From a virus, in the UHGV virus genome UHGV-0389216: 42,736 nt of DNA; one strand, 5' to 3'. Numbering within the stretch: the first letter of the stretch is position 1; each line of letters starts with the position of its first letter. The notes under the pieces were generated by a model. It saw only the letters and a list, made by a program, of their open reading frames with translations, was not told the origin of the DNA and searched no databases. The translations under genes and the position numbers were made by a program. Positions 7,540 through 24,488 of the stretch are shown here, piece by piece.

Positions 7540-8607
7540 TTATTGAAATTTATCTCGGATGAATTGCTGCGATGGTTTTTCAATGAATATATATGACATA
7601 TAGCTAATTGCCATTAATGTAAGCATGAATAAAATGAATACATTGGAGCTGTAAAAAAGATCGCGTCCATAGCCAATCCTGTCAGCTAAATAAACAGCAA
7701 TGATTTGCAAAGGAAAATGTAAAAGATAAGATGAATAACTGATATCACCCAACCATTCAATTTTCTTCCCAAAGTCGTTTCGCATTGCGCTAATTGATAC
7801 AAGGAAAAATATTATGGAGGTAAATCCAAATAAAATAATTGAGAATATATCTGCTACTTGCAGGATAAAAATAACTCCCCACGAGATTAATAGAAAAACA
7901 CAAGCGAAAATAAAAAATGATTTTGTGCCAATATTTTTTATGAACGCAATCGTAATTTTATAGGTCAGACCACCAATAAAGAAAGAGAATGCGCCGATCA
8001 TTATGGGATTGTTAATTTTGAAAAAGTAGTACGACAATGCAACTATTAAAATTGATATGAATGTTGTTTTTGATGTGAACTTGCATAATATAAAAAATAT
8101 CATGTACATAAGTACTTCAATCGACACGGACCATGTCGGTGCGTTGAAGGACCAACCTCGCTCAAATCCCCATGATTGAATCATCAATAAATTCAGAATG
8201 GCATGGTAAATGTCATTCATAGGATAAACAAAAAAATAATTATAACTTTTAAAGAAAATAATTTGTAATATTACCACGACAGCAAATGTAAATATATAAA
8301 GTGGATATAATCTACTGACACGGTTAACTATAAAAGTTTTTGCTGAGGTTTTATTGCTGTGTATATTGTCAGCGTATAGATAAAAAAATATGAATCCAGA
8401 AATCATAAAAAACAATTCGACAGCATATAAACCGTAATGATAAAAGACGGAAAAAAATTCATAAAAAGGTTGGCGGTTTATGATTATGTCAGATGCAGCA
8501 TTCTTTTTCATAAAAAAATGTTGCCAATGCCATAACACAACTGAAAGTGCGGCAAATCCTCTCAGAACATCTAGGGTATATATTCTTTTCCCAAAAACAT
8601 TCGTCAC
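7540..8607 (-). CDS. acyltransferase family 3 membrane protein, O-antigen acetylase-like
   Basis: 355 aa, GTG start. N-terminal LDVLRGFAALSVVLWHWQHFF motif and about 10 hydrophobic helices as in Oac/OafA-type acyltransferases; strongly AT-rich; opposite strand to tail genes. Confidence 0.75.
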   Translation of the reverse strand: MTNVFGKRIYTLDVLRGFAALSVVLWHWQHFFMKKNAASDIIINRQPFYEFFSVFYHYGLYAVELFFMISGFIFFYLYADNIHSNKTSAKTFIVNRVSRLYPLYIFTFAVVVILQIIFFKSYNYFFVYPMNDIYHAILNLLMIQSWGFERGWSFNAPTWSVSIEVLMYMIFFILCKFTSKTTFISILIVALSYYFFKINNPIMIGAFSFFIGGLTYKITIAFIKNIGTKSFFIFACVFLLISWGVIFILQVADIFSIILFGFTSIIFFLVSISAMRNDFGKKIEWLGDISYSSYLLHFPLQIIAVYLADRIGYGRDLFYSSNVFILFMLTLMAISYMSYIFIEKPSQQFIRDKFQ

Positions 8608-8849: not shown

Positions 8850-10260
8850 CGCTGACTCACACCTCATTTCCTGTGCGGGCTTTAAGCTCAAAGAATTATT
8901 CAGGTTTAGCGAGTCACGGTCTTACCTGTCGTTGTCATCACTCTGGCCGCCAGAGCAACCTTTCAGTATTCACCCTTTCATTAAAAGTTAATATTTATCG
9001 GTATCAGCGATTAATATGGTCTGATACTGACATGATTCTTGTCGTATTTACTTCCATGAGCTGCTATCGCCCATACTGTTCGTGCCAGTTTGTTTGCCAT
9101 GGCGACGATTGCCACGCTGGCTGGACGACGTTTTTTCAGTTCGGTTATCCACGGACCAGGTTCTTTGGTCAGTAATGCTGCCGCCCTTGCGCCATGAATA
9201 AACAAGGCTCGCAGATATGTATCACCACGTTTGCTTATCCCCAGCAGGCGGATTTTCCCTCCTGAGCCAGTCTGTTTGGGCACCAGACCAACATAAGCCG
9301 CGAACTCTCGCCCTGATTTAAACGCTGATGCTTCCCCCATGGTGGCCACCGCTGCCGTCGCAATAAGTGGCCCAACGCCGGGAATATCCAGCAACCGCTT
9401 ACAGGTTTCATTCTGTTTCGCCACGCTGGTAAGCTGTTTTTCAATATCCTCTATCAGTGAGTCCAGCTCATTCAGCCGGTTGTACTGGTTTTCCAGCACA
9501 GTAATGAGATACGGTGGCAGTCTCTCTTTCATCCGCTCCAGTGCTTCAGGGAACTCCCGCTCCATTGCTGCCCGACCTTTGTGAATTGTTTCACCAAATT
9601 CCAGGAGCGTGCCGTGCAGGGAGTTAATCTGCATGGTGCGGAACTTCACCAGTTGTCTGCGGGAACGATGCAGAACCAGTACCGACTGCTGTTCTTCTGT
9701 TTTGACAGCGATTTCCTTGCCGGGCTGTTGTACTGCCATCCAGATAGCCCGGGCATCCATAACATCGTTTTTATTACCCATGACGAACGCTTTAACGAAG
9801 CGGGCCTGCAACAACCGGACTTTATGACCCAGCTTTGTCAGTTCACGTGCCCAGTGCTGCGAGCCTCCACAGGCCTCCATACCAATCAGGCAGGGTTCCC
9901 GATTACAGAAGAACATCAGAAAATCCTGACGACGCAACTGCTTATCAATCACTTCACCTGTGTGCTCGTCGATGAAGTGAACCTGAATGACATGTTTTGC
10001 GATATCAACGCCAACCGGTGTATATTTCATTTGTGGAGTCTCCAGTCTGAAGGAGCTTTATGCATCCCGTATTGGGCACTATGATGCCGGAAATCTGCGA
10101 GGCTCCACACCTTCCTGTATTTCCCTTCATCTATCACTGTGCACCTTACTTAATGGGGGGGATGTGTTCATTACATTTCATGTATACCAGATGAAAGTGC
10201 ATGTTCTATGAAACAGGGTTTTGCCTGGAGTTTGAAGGGTTTTAAAGATTATACCTGTTT
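8850..10260 (-). mobile_element. IS110-family insertion sequence (boundaries approximate)
   Basis: Contains a single IS110-type transposase ORF with about 160 bp 3' and about 230 bp 5' non-coding flank. Exact ends not determinable by eye. Confidence 0.5.
9011..10030 (-). CDS. IS110-family transposase (DEDD-type)
   Basis: 339 aa starting MKYTPVGVDIAKHVIQVHFIDEHTGEV with ...GMEACGG...NDVMDARA..., the N-terminal DEDD fold pattern of IS110/IS1111 transposases; C-terminal domain follows. Confidence 0.85.
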   Translation of the reverse strand: MKYTPVGVDIAKHVIQVHFIDEHTGEVIDKQLRRQDFLMFFCNREPCLIGMEACGGSQHWARELTKLGHKVRLLQARFVKAFVMGNKNDVMDARAIWMAVQQPGKEIAVKTEEQQSVLVLHRSRRQLVKFRTMQINSLHGTLLEFGETIHKGRAAMEREFPEALERMKERLPPYLITVLENQYNRLNELDSLIEDIEKQLTSVAKQNETCKRLLDIPGVGPLIATAAVATMGEASAFKSGREFAAYVGLVPKQTGSGGKIRLLGISKRGDTYLRALFIHGARAAALLTKEPGPWITELKKRRPASVAIVAMANKLARTVWAIAAHGSKYDKNHVSIRPY

Positions 10261-15129: not shown

Positions 15130-16047
15130 TTATAATAGTGCTGTTACTATTGCATCTTTAAAAATATTTTCTTCTTCATTTATTAAAGGTGATGACAGAT
15201 GAATAATTACTTCTTTTCCTGTCAATACTATTTGCTCGACTTGAAATCCTGCGTTGTGTAGTCTTTGGCGTAACTTTTCTAGTGCTGATTTTGATATACT
15301 AAATCCTTCACTCCTTATAGTATAACTGGCAACTCCATTTTTAATAATATCTACAGAGTTGTCAATTTCCTGCTGCGAGTAATTTTTCGGTGAGTCGAAA
15401 AATCTGGATTTTGTCGTTGCTGTTGCCCTAAGAGATATCAATAATGATTTGATATCTTTAATCTCAGATGCCAGATACTCAGTTTCTGATACTTCTTTCT
15501 GGTCTAGTTGTGCAACTTTGAAAGTGCCAAAATGTTTGAGGAATGTTGTGTATTCAGGATCAGTTACTGACTTTAAATATGTTTCTTTTATCTTGCTCGC
15601 AAGTCTTTCTTTGAATAAATTGATTGATTGGTATCTTAAATCCGAAGGGTACTCTAAATGTTCAATTGATGAAATGTCAAAGCTATAAGGAGTGCGCTCG
15701 TCCTTAATAATTACGGTCGGTTTGTCAAATGCGAGACGCATTCCTAATTCAAACATTACATTAGCGTTTCGAGCACTTATATCGCAAACAACTATGGGGT
15801 TTTCATAAAGATTTTGAACAATTCGTTTTTGTATTACTGCAACATCATCATCTGAACTTACCAAATTTGCCTTGAATCCGGCATCATTTGATGCTTCACA
15901 AATAATGTCATGAACATTTCTCCAATGTCCAGTGGGATAACCTTCTATGTCCGCAATTGGCATAATAATGCCGCATATATGAGGTGGCATATTTTTGTTG
16001 TCTTTTACATCATCTTGGTTTATTTCTTTCGTTTGTTGCTTAGCCAT
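15130..16047 (-). CDS. accessory protein with N-terminal Rossmann-like TIR/NDT-like domain and unknown C-terminal domain
   Basis: 305 aa. Residues about 20-140 show alternating hydrophobic strand/helix pattern with ...PIVVCDISARNANVMFELGMRLAFDKPTVII..., the NV-x-x-E-x-G motif class seen in nucleoside 2-deoxyribosyltransferase-like and TIR-like folds; AT-rich; hairpin terminator downstream. Confidence 0.45.
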   Translation of the reverse strand: MAKQQTKEINQDDVKDNKNMPPHICGIIMPIADIEGYPTGHWRNVHDIICEASNDAGFKANLVSSDDDVAVIQKRIVQNLYENPIVVCDISARNANVMFELGMRLAFDKPTVIIKDERTPYSFDISSIEHLEYPSDLRYQSINLFKERLASKIKETYLKSVTDPEYTTFLKHFGTFKVAQLDQKEVSETEYLASEIKDIKSLLISLRATATTKSRFFDSPKNYSQQEIDNSVDIIKNGVASYTIRSEGFSISKSALEKLRQRLHNAGFQVEQIVLTGKEVIIHLSSPLINEEENIFKDAIVTALL

Positions 16048-16062
16048 AGCTTACACAGACTC

Positions 16063-16347
16063 CTATTGTAATTTTTTGCCTAATATACATGAAAGCTCCT
16101 TACTATCCAGTACTACCACGGTAAAGCCCAGTTTTCGCAGACGTTCATGCTCGCGCAACTGATCAGGTCGTGGTGGTTTGCCTGGTGCTTTGCATTCGAC
16201 AAAGACGATGCGACCGCCGGGTAGCAGAACAATGCGATCTGGTACCGAGCGGAGACCGGGAGATACGAACTTAAAGGCAACCCCGCCAGCCTTTTTTACT
16301 TCAGCGACGAGGTGCTTTTCGATTAGGTTTTCACGTTCATAGGCCAT
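16063..16347 (-). CDS. VRR-NUC domain nuclease
   Basis: 94 aa with ...RIVFVECKAPGKPPRPDQLREHERLRKLGFTVVVL..., characteristic of VRR-NUC (PD-(D/E)XK) proteins. Confidence 0.7.
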   Translation of the reverse strand: MAYERENLIEKHLVAEVKKAGGVAFKFVSPGLRSVPDRIVLLPGGRIVFVECKAPGKPPRPDQLREHERLRKLGFTVVVLDSKELSCILGKKLQ

Positions 16348-16541
16348 TAGCTTTCGCCTTCCTGCTTTTTGCGTTTCTTCATGCAGATAGCGCAGTTCTC
16401 AGGATGGTCATGCCATTCGTCAATCCTGATACCTGTGAACATCCATTTTCCGCATAGTGATATGGCTTCCCCCGAATTAAAGAAATGTGCTTTTTTCGAC
16501 AGGGCGGGGAACCCCCAACCTTTATTATCGATATTAGACAT
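16347..16541 (-). CDS. small Cys/His-containing protein, function unknown
   Basis: 64 aa; stop overlaps VRR-NUC start (ATGA); AAGGAGGTGGACG precedes ATG 16541; C/H cluster WHDHPENCAIC. Confidence 0.4.
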   Translation of the reverse strand: MSNIDNKGWGFPALSKKAHFFNSGEAISLCGKWMFTGIRIDEWHDHPENCAICMKKRKKQEGES

Positions 16542-16730
16542 CGTCCACCTCCTTACGCTTTTCGCGCATGTTCTGCATCAGACAAAAATCAAACCGACGT
16601 TCGCTTTGGCCCAGACCTGCATCGCCCGGTCGTACCCGCTGGACTGTTCAAGGCGCAAAGCCTCCCGCGCAGTCCGGTAATAAAGCGGACTGTCCCGGTA
16701 TTTAAATGACATAGGGTTTTTATTCCCAAA

Positions 16731-16753
16731 TAAAAAACCCCGCAATGCAGGGT
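16731..16753 (-). terminator. rho-independent terminator (minus strand) after TIR-like gene
   Basis: Minus-strand CCCTGC-ATT-GCGGGG hairpin followed by TTTTTT. Confidence 0.55.
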
Positions 16754-16776
16754 TGTAATCAACAATAAGGGGGTAA

Positions 16777-17538
16777 TTACGAGGAAGCGTTAGCTATTTG
16801 AGCTTGTGTAAATTCGAAACCAGAATTTTGTAACCGTTGCACTAGACGAGGAACTGTTTCACGTACATGGTCGTTGAAATTCAGATACAAAATCCCGTTA
16901 GCATCAGAAGGCTGTTCTAGGTGCTGTTTCTGAAGGATTGCTACATTGCTGCGCCCTAAGGACGAAAGAAGCATACCCATCTCGAGTACAACGTTCTGTC
17001 TTGCGCGGGGTTGGATTTCTGCTTCACCGGCGCGCTTTGAGTATCCCATATCATCAGGTGTCAAAAGAACAATCCCGAAACGGGTAGCAGTTTGTCCTTG
17101 CCCAATTTCACGTTCAAGCTCTTCAATAATGGTGAGTCCAGTCCCTCCCGTATTCTGCAAAATGAAATGGTCTGGTAATCCAAGTTTATGAAGGATTAGC
17201 TCAAGTTGTTCCTTTGCAGTATGGTCATGGCCGTGAACAATGAATATCTTTTTGGGAAGCTCAGATGGCTGTTCTACGGCTAGTGGTGTTGCCGTGGGGG
17301 GCGTTCCTAAATGGGACATTATTGCAGTTTCAACATTGGGACGTTCTTGAGGGTTACCTTGAAACTGAATGGTCCGGGTGGTGTAAAGGTTAACAATTAC
17401 GCCATTCGTTAAACGATAGCAGTCATAAGTCTCACGCTGTTCGTGGGAAAAATTGGTGAACCCACACTCCCTCAAAAAGTCAGGAAAAGATTCTCTCGGG
17501 TATGGATAGGTGATCGGCATTTCAGTTAGTTCCTGCAT
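16777..17538 (-). CDS. TIR-like (Cap12/PycTIR-type) nucleotide-binding domain protein with unassigned N-terminal domain
   Basis: 253 aa; C-terminal domain KKIFIVHGHDH...GIVLLTPDD...RQNVVLEMGMLLSSLGRSNVAIL matches the TIR-like predicted nucleotide-binding fold signature as I recall it; N-terminal 85 aa unassigned. Confidence 0.5.
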   Translation of the reverse strand: MQELTEMPITYPYPRESFPDFLRECGFTNFSHEQRETYDCYRLTNGVIVNLYTTRTIQFQGNPQERPNVETAIMSHLGTPPTATPLAVEQPSELPKKIFIVHGHDHTAKEQLELILHKLGLPDHFILQNTGGTGLTIIEELEREIGQGQTATRFGIVLLTPDDMGYSKRAGEAEIQPRARQNVVLEMGMLLSSLGRSNVAILQKQHLEQPSDANGILYLNFNDHVRETVPRLVQRLQNSGFEFTQAQIANASS

Positions 17539-21849: not shown

Positions 21850-22752
21850 TTAACCCTCCAGTGCTTTTTCAGCTAGGGTGATTACTTCAGCGAGATTTTC
21901 ATCCGTTACTTCACCAAGTTTCCTGGCTCCCTGTTTTTCCAGAATTGCAATAGCTTCTGCCCGGTAGCCCCCTTTTGCTAACTGGAGGATCAACCCTTCA
22001 GCTTGTTTGCGTAGTGCCGCGAAATCAATTGTATGGTCATCTTTTGCGTCATTATTCTGGCTGGAATTTGCTGCGTCTCTGCGTGCAAATTCTTCCTGCA
22101 GCTGAAGGTACTCAACACGGTTGATCTCGATATGGCCTTTTTTCAGCATCTCGTTCAACTTGCGTAAGGTGTGGAGTTCACTGGCTGCTGTGCCGGATAC
22201 ATTTTTGACGTAAAACGGCCCCGTGCGTTCTCCATCTTTGTTACTGGCCTTTTTCGGCTTAACTTCATCACGCCCATCCGCAGGTGCATCAAGTAGCTGC
22301 TCGGCAAAAGCACGTCGCTCGCCGATGGTTGGCAGGTCGTCCCAGAACTTAAGGATGTTACGGGACAGGTCCAGGAGAGCAGGTTTAAGCAGCGCCCTGG
22401 CTCGTTTGACGCCCTGCAATGCGCTGTCGAGAGCATCAATCTGAACTACTCGTTTATCGCCTTCAGCATCACGGTAGGCAACAGCACGTTGCAGCATGTC
22501 TTCTGTGATAGGGGTGGCTACCGGGTAGAAACCAGCCAGTGCGATAACGTCGCTGAACTCCAGATCATCCAGTGTCATTGCCGCTGACATATTTTCAGTT
22601 TCAGTTGCTGTATCCCGACATTCCTGCACTCGTGAAATCGTGTCAGGATGCATAACAATGCCTGATGCCATTGTGCAGATAAGACGTTCAAGCAGCGCAT
22701 TATGTTGTGCCAGAAGTTGATTATTAAGTTCTAGACTGGTTTCTAAACTCAT
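21850..22752 (-). CDS. hypothetical early-operon protein
   Basis: 300-aa ORF coupled to flanking genes; no family recognised. Confidence 0.45.
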
Positions 22753-22931
22753 ACTGTGGTCCTCGCTACAAGGAGAATGAAAGTGATGATCAGACCGAGC
22801 GCAGTGGCAACGGCCAGACCGGTCATCAAATCGAAGTTTTTACGGCGATAACGGAGAACATCGCGCCCCGTCAGTCGATGGATGTGTTCAGGTTTCATCG
22901 GTTGTATTCCTTTTTTCATATCGGGGAGCAC
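22749..22931 (-). CDS. small C-terminally membrane-anchored protein
   Basis: 60 aa; basic N-terminus, C-terminal helix LAVATALGLIITFILLV; first ORF of early-left operon. Confidence 0.35.
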   Translation of the reverse strand: MLPDMKKGIQPMKPEHIHRLTGRDVLRYRRKNFDLMTGLAVATALGLIITFILLVARTTV

Positions 22932-22956
22932 GCTGTTGCGAGTGCGCTTTCAGACA

Positions 22957-22984
22957 TAAAAAAGCCCGTCACTTGAGGCGGGCA
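22957..22984 (-). terminator. rho-independent terminator (minus strand), tL1-like position
   Basis: Minus-strand GCCCGCC...GGCGGGC hairpin followed by TTTTTT, between the zinc-ribbon gene and the early-left operon. Confidence 0.55.
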
Positions 22985-23014
22985 AAGACTACACACAGCA
23001 ATTACATGGATGAT

Positions 23015-23209
23015 TCAGTTGGTATTGTGCGTACGTGGTACCACAAGGTTGAAGCGGACACGCCAGTGCGTTGCAATGGTATGCAGGAAAGCACCACATC
23101 CAGGGCAGTGCTCATAACATTCGTTGATTTGGTATCGTTTTGGCTTTGGTGTCAGAAGCTGTGTTTGGCAAGCAGGGCATTCACCTTTGAGCGGTTTATA
23201 CGTTTTCAC
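23015..23209 (-). CDS. zinc-ribbon protein in the lambda N position
   Basis: 64 aa; CPAC...CYEHCPGC four-Cys ribbon; located between the CI-like gene and the terminator. Confidence 0.4.
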   Translation of the reverse strand: MKTYKPLKGECPACQTQLLTPKPKRYQINECYEHCPGCGAFLHTIATHWRVRFNLVVPRTHNTN

Positions 23210-23531
23210 GCCGTTTCCTCATTCAGTTCACTTTGGTGGTTCGGCGGCTTCGACTTGTATCAGTAGACAGTGCTTCGCCGCACCCCAAAGGGAACTTACT
23301 GACCCGTATTGCCGACATCCTGTCCCGCCACGGTCCCGACGCATGGTTTAGAGTCGCGCCGTTCGACTTGTGGCTAAAGATACAATTTGAGTTGTATTAT
23401 GTAAACCACAAATGTGGTATTTTGTGGGGTGTTAATACTACTTTATTGATATTTAAGTGAATTTAATTTGTAAGACTTTACAAATGGGGTAAGGGAGGCT
23501 GTTACACCTCCCGATATTTACGGTGGGAATA

Positions 23532-24155
23532 CTAACGTTTACGGCGGTAAATACGGTGTTCGATCATTACACCTATGATCTGTAAGTTCATATCTGCACT
23601 ACGAAAAATAGGGTAATCAGGATTTAGGGGGATTAATTCAAAGTCGTCGATGCCGATTCCTAATGGACGGTATTTTTTAAATGTAGCTTCGTGACCGTCG
23701 TTTTTGGCGACAACAAACTCCCCTGGTGCAGGACATAGATCAGGATCGATGATAACAATGTCTCCTTCTTTAAACTCTGGTTGCATGCTGTCGCCATCGA
23801 TACGTAATGCGAAGCATGTTTCTGGAATGTCAGAGTCTGCCAAAATATATTCAAATTCCCCTGTCAGATCTGTTATGTCTCTTGCTTCTGTAAGCTCTCC
23901 TGCCTGAACGTAACTTAATATAGGTATGCGTCTGGTACTTATCTCCGCGAGAGGCATAATATTTTTACCGTTCAGTAGCCAGTCTGGGCTACATTTCAAG
24001 GCCTTAGCCAGATCCAGAAGATTGCGTGGCTTTCTGGTTCGTCCACTTTCGATGGATTCTATGGATTGTTGGCTAACCCCTGCAGAATTCGCTACTTCCA
24101 CTTGAGTCATTCCTAATTCCAAACGACGTGCTTTAAAACGGGCTGCGAGAGACAT
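23532..24155 (-). CDS. CI-like repressor (HTH plus S24 LexA-like peptidase domain)
   Basis: ATG 24155 with AGGA upstream; HTH MTQVEVANSAGVSQQSIESIESG; peptidase motif RIDGDSMQPEF; divergent from Cro-like gene. Confidence 0.85.
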   Translation of the reverse strand: MSLAARFKARRLELGMTQVEVANSAGVSQQSIESIESGRTRKPRNLLDLAKALKCSPDWLLNGKNIMPLAEISTRRIPILSYVQAGELTEARDITDLTGEFEYILADSDIPETCFALRIDGDSMQPEFKEGDIVIIDPDLCPAPGEFVVAKNDGHEATFKKYRPLGIGIDDFELIPLNPDYPIFRSADMNLQIIGVMIEHRIYRRKR

Positions 24156-24178
24156 GGGATTAGTCCTTCTGGGTTGTA

Positions 24179-24256
24179 TTAATGTGTATCCCCACATTAA
24201 AAACAATTTTTGTTGTATTTGACAAACCTCGTTTGTTGTTGCTAAATACCACTAAA
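24179..24256. promoter_or_regulatory. operator palindrome plus PR-like promoter of the immunity switch
   Basis: Perfect inverted repeat TTAATGTG-N6-CACATTAA (24179-24200); TTGACA (24219-24224), 18-bp spacer, TAAATA (24243-24248), then Cro start. Confidence 0.5.
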
Positions 24257-24275
24257 ATTGTATGAGGTGAAAGCA

Positions 24276-24488
24276 ATGACCTTAGCGACCCGAGTAAAAG
24301 AACGACGTAAAGAACTCAAAATGACGCAAGTTACGTTGGCTGAGCTCACAGGAGTGAGCCAGCAGGCAATAAACAGAATTGAAAGTGGTGTTATTGCTCG
24401 GCCACGTTATCTTCTTGAAATGTCTATAGCATTGGATTGCGACCCTAATTGGCTGTTGTATGGCTCACAAAACGATAAAAAGGCTTAA
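24276..24488 (+). CDS. Cro-like HTH regulator
   Basis: ATG 24276 preceded by GAGGTG; HTH MTQVTLAELTGVSQQAINRIESG; 71 aa. Confidence 0.7.
   Translation: MTLATRVKERRKELKMTQVTLAELTGVSQQAINRIESGVIARPRYLLEMSIALDCDPNWLLYGSQNDKKA

Follow-up and report, generated by a model that had tools for sequence, protein, structure and literature searches.

An HK022-type put RNA and an RprA-like terminator in the early-left control region of a temperate Escherichia coli phage

The virus genome UHGV-0389216, a stretch of 42,736 nucleotides that was analysed as a whole (hereafter designated the window), is a 42.7-kb genome of a temperate phage, in which the early-left control region is read on the minus strand. 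We found that the transcript of the early-left promoter, PL, begins with an RNA homologous to the antiterminator RNA putL of phage HK022, and that the first terminator in its path matches the 3′ half, namely the processed form, of the host small RNA (sRNA) RprA. Both homologies, that of put and that of the RprA-like module, are in our judgment close to certain. Presumably, the early-left control region of this temperate E. coli phage is built on the HK022 plan and not on the N plan of phage λ, with put-mediated read-through of a terminator that mimics RprA, a reading to which we assign a probability of about 0.6. An earlier note on this DNA had recognized the small protein in the position of λ N, the terminator, and an operator palindrome, but missed the two features that are most informative, namely put and the identity of the terminator with RprA.

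On the minus strand, the order cro, operators, LexA-type repressor, PL, an open reading frame (ORF) for a 64-residue protein with four Cys residues, intrinsic terminator, and early-left operon was confirmed (Table 1). The likeness to the λ order cro-cI-PL-N-tL1 drawn before holds, and the elements described earlier were all found in the window.

A put-type RNA at the 5′ end of the PL transcript

RNAs of the put type act in cis on the transcribing RNA polymerase through the zinc-binding domain of its β′ subunit, need no phage protein, override terminators of the intrinsic and of the Rho-dependent kind across more than 10 kb, and contain a −10-like pause element whose role has been described (PMC9378689). 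The window sequence 23371–23299 showed 82% identity over 73 nt to HK022 putL, lies at the same position after PL, and contains the same pause element, AACCAU, together with a stem I (GUCG/CGAC) and a stem II whose loop reads AGGAU. When a covariance model was derived from the HK022-type puts alone, with the window copy left out, its only match in the window was 23299–23371 on the minus strand, with 77.9 bits (E 1.5e-14), and this copy contained no non-canonical pairs. In an alignment of 17 put sequences, 96% of the cells were paired and five pairs were changed on both sides, a degree of pairing that was equalled by none of 500 shuffles and not approached by slid controls either. Both stem-loops, including an unpaired wedge base in the lower stem II, are maintained by compensatory changes, which interchange GAC/GUC and GUC/GAC in stem I and, in stem II, G-C and C-G, C-G and U-A, and GUUC/GAAC, GAC/GUC, and GGC/GCC. 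Moreover, the predicted −10 hexamer of PL ends at 23377 and put begins at 23371, the predicted transcription start, which places the pause element at +23 to +28, as in put.

The leader of 160 nt is GC-rich and conserved regardless of immunity type, even in a Limnobaculum prophage. Puts were carried by more than 120 contigs of IMG/VR and fall into two sub-families; the stem II of the window put marks a distinct sub-family, found mostly in phages with a replication module of DUF2800, an Enc34-type single-stranded DNA-binding protein (SSB), and PolA. A divergent put, detected with the same family of models, lies 360 nt upstream of the RprA-like module in the relative L012.

HK022 and the window share a LexA-type repressor, a PL with the −35 hexamer TTTACA and a hexamer spacing of 17 nt, a put of about 73 nt with two stems at the 5′ end of the transcript, an accessory gene in the N slot after put, and downstream terminators to be read through. 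They differ in the sub-family of put stem II, in putR, which was not detected in the window, and in the slot gene, which encodes a zinc-ribbon protein in the window and the Arg-rich Nun in HK022. The product of nun, the N-slot gene of HK022, is an exclusion factor and not the phage's own antiterminator. With the λ arrangement PL-nutL-N-tL1, the window has in common a small first gene followed by a terminator gating the early-left operon; unlike λ, it encodes no Arg-rich protein of the N type, and its antitermination is most likely mediated by RNA (put) only. A nut site (boxA/boxB) was not matched in an Rfam scan of 22800–24400, for which the existence of a nut family in Rfam was not ascertained, and no search aimed at such sites was made. 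Because put lies between PL and the 64-residue protein gene, read-through would be explained without a protein, as in HK022, and it is probably put, rather than the 64-residue protein, that mediates it. The antitermination activity of the window put is itself inferred by homology with HK022 putL.

In sister phages, put is replaced by a leader of about 170 nt after PL, here called type B (L004, 5745–5925; L001, 5040–5215, minus strand; L071, 2440–2615). This strongly structured, multi-stem leader is closed by GCGUGAC/GUCACGC and followed by the hairpin ACGCCCCGAUGAUGGGGCGU, and it is conserved from E. coli to Pluralibacter. It was rejected as a put, the put models giving no match to it, and may represent a second class of leader antiterminator RNA.

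The first early-left terminator resembles processed RprA

RprA is cleaved by RNase E in an Hfq-dependent manner at GA/AUU, where the slash marks the cleavage (PMC5222698), and its processed form, the last ~47 nt, is stable, coexists with the primary transcript, accumulates above it, and is active alone, the repression of narP by this species having been left unexplained (PMC9262595). The terminator module of the window begins with 23 nt, AUUGCUGUGUGUAGUCUUUGCCC, all of which are identical to host RprA from the cleavage site on, and continues with the hairpin GCCCGCC-UCAAGU-GACGGGC (22964–22983), which keeps six of seven pairs, and U6 (22958–22963, minus strand). These positions confirm the intrinsic terminator that had been proposed ahead of the early-left operon. 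The stretch of 55 nt holding the hairpin (22950–23004, minus strand) folds with −11.9 kcal/mol. The hairpin follows the design of that in host RprA but departs from it by one mismatch, a different loop, and one compensatory pair; because of a C·A mismatch in the stem, the terminator was missed by a simple scan. A blastn search with the module stretch matched annotated rprA in 5,424 of 5,426 E. coli genomes.

The Rfam model of RprA (RF00034) matched 22954–23063 on the minus strand with 49.7 bits (E 7e-5), short of its gathering score of 70 because only the 3′ half aligns: positions of about 60–108 of the model alone are aligned with high posterior probability. The module is not a full RprA gene of ~105 nt with three stem-loops. 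What it shares with the processed form of the host RNA is, in addition to the 23 nt from the cleavage site, the architecture of a small upstream hairpin plus a terminator hairpin, and the U tail; unlike host RprA, it lacks the 5′ 58 nt, and with them the stem-loops, the greater part of the region pairing with rpoS/csgD/narP, and the promoter under Rcs control, its hairpin sequence differs, and the phage RNA would come from the 3′ end of a phage mRNA. A promoter scan found no promoter for an RprA-like RNA inside the upstream ORF.

Among the phages, the conserved block starts exactly at the +1 A of GA/AUU; the preceding base is A or C, and the sequence farther upstream is unrelated. The window module has the A/AUU context with U at +2. 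One pair of the hairpin covaries across the variants, being A-U in 15, G-C in 9, and U-A in 1. We infer from the likeness to RprA that the module may be processed by RNase E and bound by Hfq, and that the resulting RNA acts in trans as an sRNA is a possibility to which we give slightly less than even odds. By eye, the module keeps only AAUU of AACGAAUU, the block of RprA that we take to pair with rpoS, and an activation of rpoS of the RprA type by the phage RNA is unlikely. A perfect complement of 13 nt to the RprA-like seed, CAAAGACUACACA, was found at 15255–15267 (minus strand) inside a 305-residue ORF, against a naive chance expectation of about 0.01. This site, the only candidate target in the window besides the self-antisense match, has a duplex energy within the range of shuffles and constitutes a weak lead.

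No phage copy of RprA is described in the searchable literature (open-access papers and bioRxiv only, so that a description elsewhere is possible), and the RprA-mimic terminator is apparently undescribed so far. The papers on phage sRNAs that were consulted, a review among them, noted no similarity to RprA for StxS, HnrS, Pas, AgvB/AsxR, or STnc100. The module was not matched to any of these RNAs, apart from an STnc100-like 5′ domain fused to it in some phages. StxS is an Hfq sRNA that arises by early termination of the late transcript of Shiga toxin (Stx) phages, at PR′-tR′ (PMC7547250; review PMC7873438). Here as there, a terminator controlled by antitermination would yield a regulatory sRNA as a by-product; unlike the RprA-like module, StxS belongs to a late promoter/terminator pair, shows no sequence relation, and does not copy a host sRNA. 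The likeness to the prophage sRNAs STnc100 and PasD (RF02076) lies in Cronobacter phage phiES15 and the phages of the LLS type, in which an STnc100-like 5′ domain and the RprA-like 3′ module are fused at the same place in the genome, whereas the window has no such domain and the canonical 3′ end of STnc100 is not RprA-like. The fusion, with the hairpin CACCGGGAGGCACCCGG in the 5′ domain, was seen downstream of the repressor in phiES15 (L191, 2363–2548) and in IMG/VR loci such as L027, L016, and L190, which suggests that 3′ ends are modular among prophage leader sRNAs.

Distribution of the RprA-like module

A search for a 24-mer of the module retrieved 64 IMG/VR contigs with at least 12 unrelated upstream contexts, and at least 36 distinct variants were counted when near matches were included. 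In many unrelated temperate phages, the module shares the strand of the repressor gene and lies 300–1200 nt downstream of it, which is the place of the first early-left terminator, as in phage LLS of Escherichia, before yfdP/yfdQ, and phage phiES15 of Cronobacter, before kil/gam; it also occurs elsewhere, after tRNA genes or before a lysis cassette. In lytic N4-like phages of Erwinia, such as Ea9-2 (L188, 1201–1247), it follows directly past the stop codon of thyA, the gene for thymidylate synthase, and in jumbo phages of Erwinia, such as pEa_SNUABM_1 (L189, 1201–1270), an entirely different terminator follows the retained seed. Of the loci retrieved by means of put only, a set unbiased for the module, 7 of 11 of the window type had a seed with at most two mismatches; this was so in none of the 62 HK022-type put loci, and none of them has an RprA-like first terminator. 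As distant relatives have a degraded seed or none, the module is not essential to the phage family.

A fragment resembling a tRNA T-arm (GGTTCGATTCCGG...) adjoins the module upstream in L007, L028, and L065, where ARAGORN called no tRNA, and a real tRNA gene lies 100–500 nt upstream of the module in L060, L052, and L043.

The zinc-ribbon gene in a variable slot

The 64-residue ORF starts with GTG, 6 nt downstream of a GAGGA Shine-Dalgarno sequence (23216–23220), and is, to judge from its conservation, a real gene. Two exhaustive protein searches yielded a family of only five clusters (100, 88, 75, 60, and 49% identity), in all of which the four Cys residues and the motifs KPLKG...KP.RY...IATHW are kept, and the pairwise ratios of nonsynonymous to synonymous substitution rates (dN/dS) of 0.16–0.45 indicate purifying selection. 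The family looks small partly because the RefSeq/PGAP annotation leaves the gene (23015–23209; L002, 5000–5580) unannotated in E. coli genomes. AlphaFold predicted an all-beta protein of five β strands (predicted local distance difference test score, pLDDT, 83.8), with the zinc ribbon LysW as its best match in the PDB (probability 0.96) and a fold also close to uncharacterised phage proteins; the two CxxC knuckles (CPAC at residues 11–14 and CPGC at 35–38) lie on β hairpins, and their Cys residues are invariant across the homologues. The ORF, its homologues, and the model agree with the small four-Cys zinc ribbon, not rich in Arg, that the earlier note had placed in the N position. Matches to zinc-ribbon families of Pfam were all sub-threshold (zf-IS66, 25.9 bits versus a cut-off of 27.3), PHROGs gave nothing better than a Lar-like family (E 0.099), naming in the NCBI style likewise brought only generic zinc-finger matches below threshold, and tblastn against 50,697 phage records gave no match; neither an Arg-rich motif nor a match to an N-like family of Pfam or PHROGs was found. 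A likeness to the Phage_Mu_gp6 family (PF26833) consists in a precomputed match on the 49%-identical homologue P0005 only; P0005 is encoded in a row of small early accessory genes. The 64-residue protein is most likely an accessory early protein with a function in exclusion, anti-defence, or host take-over.

Exactly past the stop codon of this ORF, the window becomes homologous to the phages of the 611R5 type. The terminator and the early-left operon recur at 98% identity in phages vB_EcoM-611R5, 606R2, and 689R2 and in many contigs of IMG/VR, where the slot holds other cargo, which in the 611R5 type consists of two genes on the opposite strand. Elsewhere, the slot holds an unrelated 63-residue ORF (L071), a 117-residue ORF (L012), or further inserts. 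At least six different inserts between leader and terminator were found among the relatives, in which put and the terminator lie 250 to 895 nt apart. Since the slot gene is freely exchanged while the terminator and the operon stay constant, it is probably not what opens the terminator. The slot is best understood as a variable cargo position, like that of nun in HK022, and a hypervariable position of this kind between put and terminator is a good place to seek genes for exclusion or anti-defence.

In the slot of the 611R5 type (L001, 4330–4993), an opposite-strand gene encodes a coiled-coil protein of 189 residues that also has a CxxC...CxxC motif, and two direct repeats, ACTGTAGGGGT, stand before it; transcription from PL would run antisense through this gene.

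Alternative explanations

The RprA-like block could be a terminator and nothing else, with no role in trans, acquired from host rprA or from another phage and kept by frequent recombination of phage modules, as a linker at the boundary between the immunity and early-left regions, or by the need for termination in cis. This explanation, which would account for the position of the block at a mosaic boundary where phage–phage homology starts or ends, for its frequent recurrence at the same place downstream of the repressor, and for the degenerate seeds of some relatives, is in our view unlikely, because the invariant part is the single-stranded seed whereas the hairpin varies freely and covaries, and because conservation sets in exactly where the RNase E product of RprA has its 5′ end. 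Moreover, the seed stands before a completely different terminator in the Erwinia jumbo phages, and the module is also found in lytic phages, behind thyA, and behind tRNA genes, places that lack any boundary of an immunity module. That the block belongs to an attachment site for integration in host rprA, or is what remains of one, as occurs with tRNA or sRNA genes, is extremely improbable, even though tRNA attachment sites show this very pattern, in which sequence exactly identical to the host RNA gene's 3′ part runs on into a 3′ end specific to the phage. Such an attP origin was rejected in view of the internal position of the block in integrated prophages, between the repressor and the early-left operon, and of its presence in lytic phages; the integrase gene lies ~10 kb from the block, and prophage junctions elsewhere than rprA were indicated for E. 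coli F11.

The gene at the N position invites the explanation, put forward in the earlier note, that early-left expression requires its protein, whether as a non-canonical antiterminator or in some other way, with the terminator after its own gene as the site of action. The put RNA upstream of this gene, the absence of the gene from sister phages whose terminator and operon are 98% identical, and the lack of an Arg-rich motif and of any similarity to N, Q, Nun, or other antiterminators make this very improbable, although the gene is the first after PL and directly precedes the terminator, and the protein is basic, could bind nucleic acid, and is under purifying selection. Its fold is that of a generic zinc ribbon, and the distant homologue with the Phage_Mu_gp6 match, among small early accessory genes, likewise argues against such a function.

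Several observations nevertheless weigh against an HK022-type region with an RprA-mimic terminator, which remains the preferred reading. The 24-mer search was biased to exact copies, and 4 of the 11 unbiased loci lacked the seed, which is truncated in L071, diverged in L187, and absent from L074. A covariance scan with filters off found no putR on the rightward operon, nor another put anywhere in the window. The terminator stem, with its C·A mismatch, is moderately weak. If put were as efficient as in HK022, most PL transcripts could be read through, and little terminated sRNA would be made. A regulatory role of the 64-residue protein is also still conceivable.

Operators, promoters, and neighbouring genes

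The operator-like pattern ATACMA-N6-TKGTAT occurs at four sites in the whole window (23380, 23403, 24201, and 24246), all of them in the two intergenic regions flanking the repressor gene (the left and right operators, OL and OR), a number that was reached in none of 100 shuffles with the pattern refined post hoc, after the sites had been seen. The repressor has both helix-turn-helix (HTH) and S24 peptidase domains, and the repeated palindromic sites are confined to OL and OR. PL is σ70-like, with its −35 hexamer at 23405–23400 and the −10 hexamer TATCTT at 23382–23377 on the minus strand, and is bracketed by the two OL sites. Of the two palindromes previously assigned to the PL/OL spacer, which measures 320 bp from repressor to ORF, CCACAAATGTGG is the core of the operator-like site at 23403, although it lies at 23406–23417, 2 nt away from where it had been placed. 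The other, GGGAGG-N8-CCTCCC, is no operator but a stable hairpin shortly past the repressor stop codon; in other immunity types, a different hairpin or a canonical terminator stands at its position, and it is best read as a candidate 3′ end or terminator of the repressor transcript. A motif, CCCCACAWWAAA, occurs 20–30 bp upstream of the −35 hexamers of both PL (23415–23432, minus strand) and PR (24190–24205, plus strand).

Table 1. Features of the early-left control region and its flanks (window coordinates)
Feature	Coordinates	Strand	Basis
First gene of the early-left operon, 49 residues, membrane-like	22749..22898	-	ORF list, Pfam/PHROGs scans, RefSeq annotation
Module like mature RprA: AUUGCUGUGUGUAGUCUUUGCCC identical to host RprA, hairpin, U6; first early-left terminator	22958..23002	-	Rfam, RprA sequence, blastn, covariation
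Linker CUGAAUCAUCCAUGUA, common to phages of the family with differing cargo; its last base, A, is −1 of the putative RNase E site A/AUU	23003..23018	-	
Basic four-Cys zinc-ribbon ORF, 64 residues, in the N/nun slot	23015..23209	-	Homologues, dN/dS, AlphaFold
putL-type RNA, from about the PL transcription start (A 23371)	23299..23371	-	Homology to HK022 putL and covariance model
PL/OL region	23377..23420	-	Promoter scan, operator pattern scan, match to HK022 PL
OL1, ATACAATTTGAGTTGTAT, in the PL −35/−10 spacer	23380-23397	-	Pattern scan
OL2, AAACCACAAATGTGGTAT, holding the palindrome noted earlier	23403-23420	-	Pattern scan
Hairpin GGGAGG-N8-CCUCCC, 20 nt past the repressor stop; timm-like, weak U tail	23493..23512	-	Fold −13.8 kcal/mol, z −3.9
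cI-like LexA/S24 repressor, 207 residues	23532..24155	-	Pfam Peptidase_S24 1.8e-21 and HTH_3 1.1e-12; PGAP name 'LexA family protein'
OR, two operator-like sites: AAACAATTTTTGTTGTAT (24201-24218) and ATACCACTAAAATTGTAT (24246-24263)	24201..24263	.	Pattern scan of the window
cro-like HTH gene, 70 residues, opening the rightward operon	24276..24488	+	Pfam HTH_3 E 1.7e-14; helix-turn-helix protein in the annotation of RefSeq relatives

The immunity region of 1,351 bp (22950–24300) was matched in 151 of 5,426 complete E. coli genomes, in 43 of them at a coverage of at least 80%. Beyond its first gene, the early-left operon encodes a 300-residue protein, a DUF2800 nuclease, the Enc34-type SSB, and DNA polymerase A. 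A strong terminator on the minus strand (16736–16754) lies within this operon, between a gene for a TIR-domain protein and the 305-residue ORF, and its presence fits the need for processive antitermination. The protein with the TIR domain is of the CAP12/Pycsar type (16777–17538, minus strand) and the 305-residue ORF is AT-rich, with no family assigned (15130–16047, minus strand); both are inserted in the early-left operon, and the insert (15130–17538) may be a defence moron. A Q-type antiterminator gene lies farther along the rightward operon. The window also encodes an acyltransferase possibly involved in O-antigen modification (7540–8607), a transposase of the IS110 family (9011–10030), and the phage integrase (12076–13479). 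In L005 (11–970), a gene for a ribosome-inactivating protein (RIP) of the Shiga-toxin A type lies downstream of Q, and this relative shares the zinc-ribbon gene and the early-left operon with the window; the phage family appears to include Stx-converting members, for which this A-subunit-type RIP match is the sole basis.

Discussion

Collectively, these features are consistent with the following course of early-left transcription. When the LexA-type repressor leaves OL1 and OL2, RNA polymerase would start at PL and transcribe put at once (23371 to 23299). By homology with HK022 putL, put would fold into two stem-loops, stay on the zinc-binding domain of β′, and render the polymerase resistant to terminators with no help from a phage protein. 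The polymerase would next transcribe the cargo of the slot, here the 64-residue zinc ribbon, which would be dispensable for expression of the operon, and, in its put-modified state, continue past the RprA-like terminator into the replication/recombination operon, crossing other terminators, for example that at 16736–16754, on its way. An unmodified polymerase would halt at the RprA-like terminator, and termination or RNase E cleavage at A/AUU would release an RNA of ~45 nt, consisting of seed, hairpin, and U tail in the usual Hfq-binding layout. The terminator would have two jobs: insulating the operon and releasing an Hfq-dependent sRNA that imitates processed RprA.

We tentatively propose, on grounds that leave this wider idea somewhat doubtful, that temperate and lytic phages of the Enterobacterales carry a portable cassette equivalent to the RNase E-processed, active form of RprA, which would sit at the 3′ ends of early transcripts, very often as the first terminator past the immunity region, and would supply the Hfq network with a ready copy of a stress sRNA of the host; its output would be tied to the state of antitermination, as it would be made when the polymerase is not put-modified. 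A speculative protein antiterminator is hereby replaced by an RNA mechanism that can be tested. The HK022-type put occurs far beyond a single model phage, is coupled here to a non-lambdoid replication module, and is carried by a family that has relatives with Shiga toxin, as indicated by the A-subunit-type RIP match in L005. If the reading of the terminator is true, a virus would here encode a copy of a core bacterial sRNA in its mature form, and the short form of RprA would have a function worth copying by many phages; if the RNA is active, it would provide a new route of host manipulation and a handle on the role of processed RprA.

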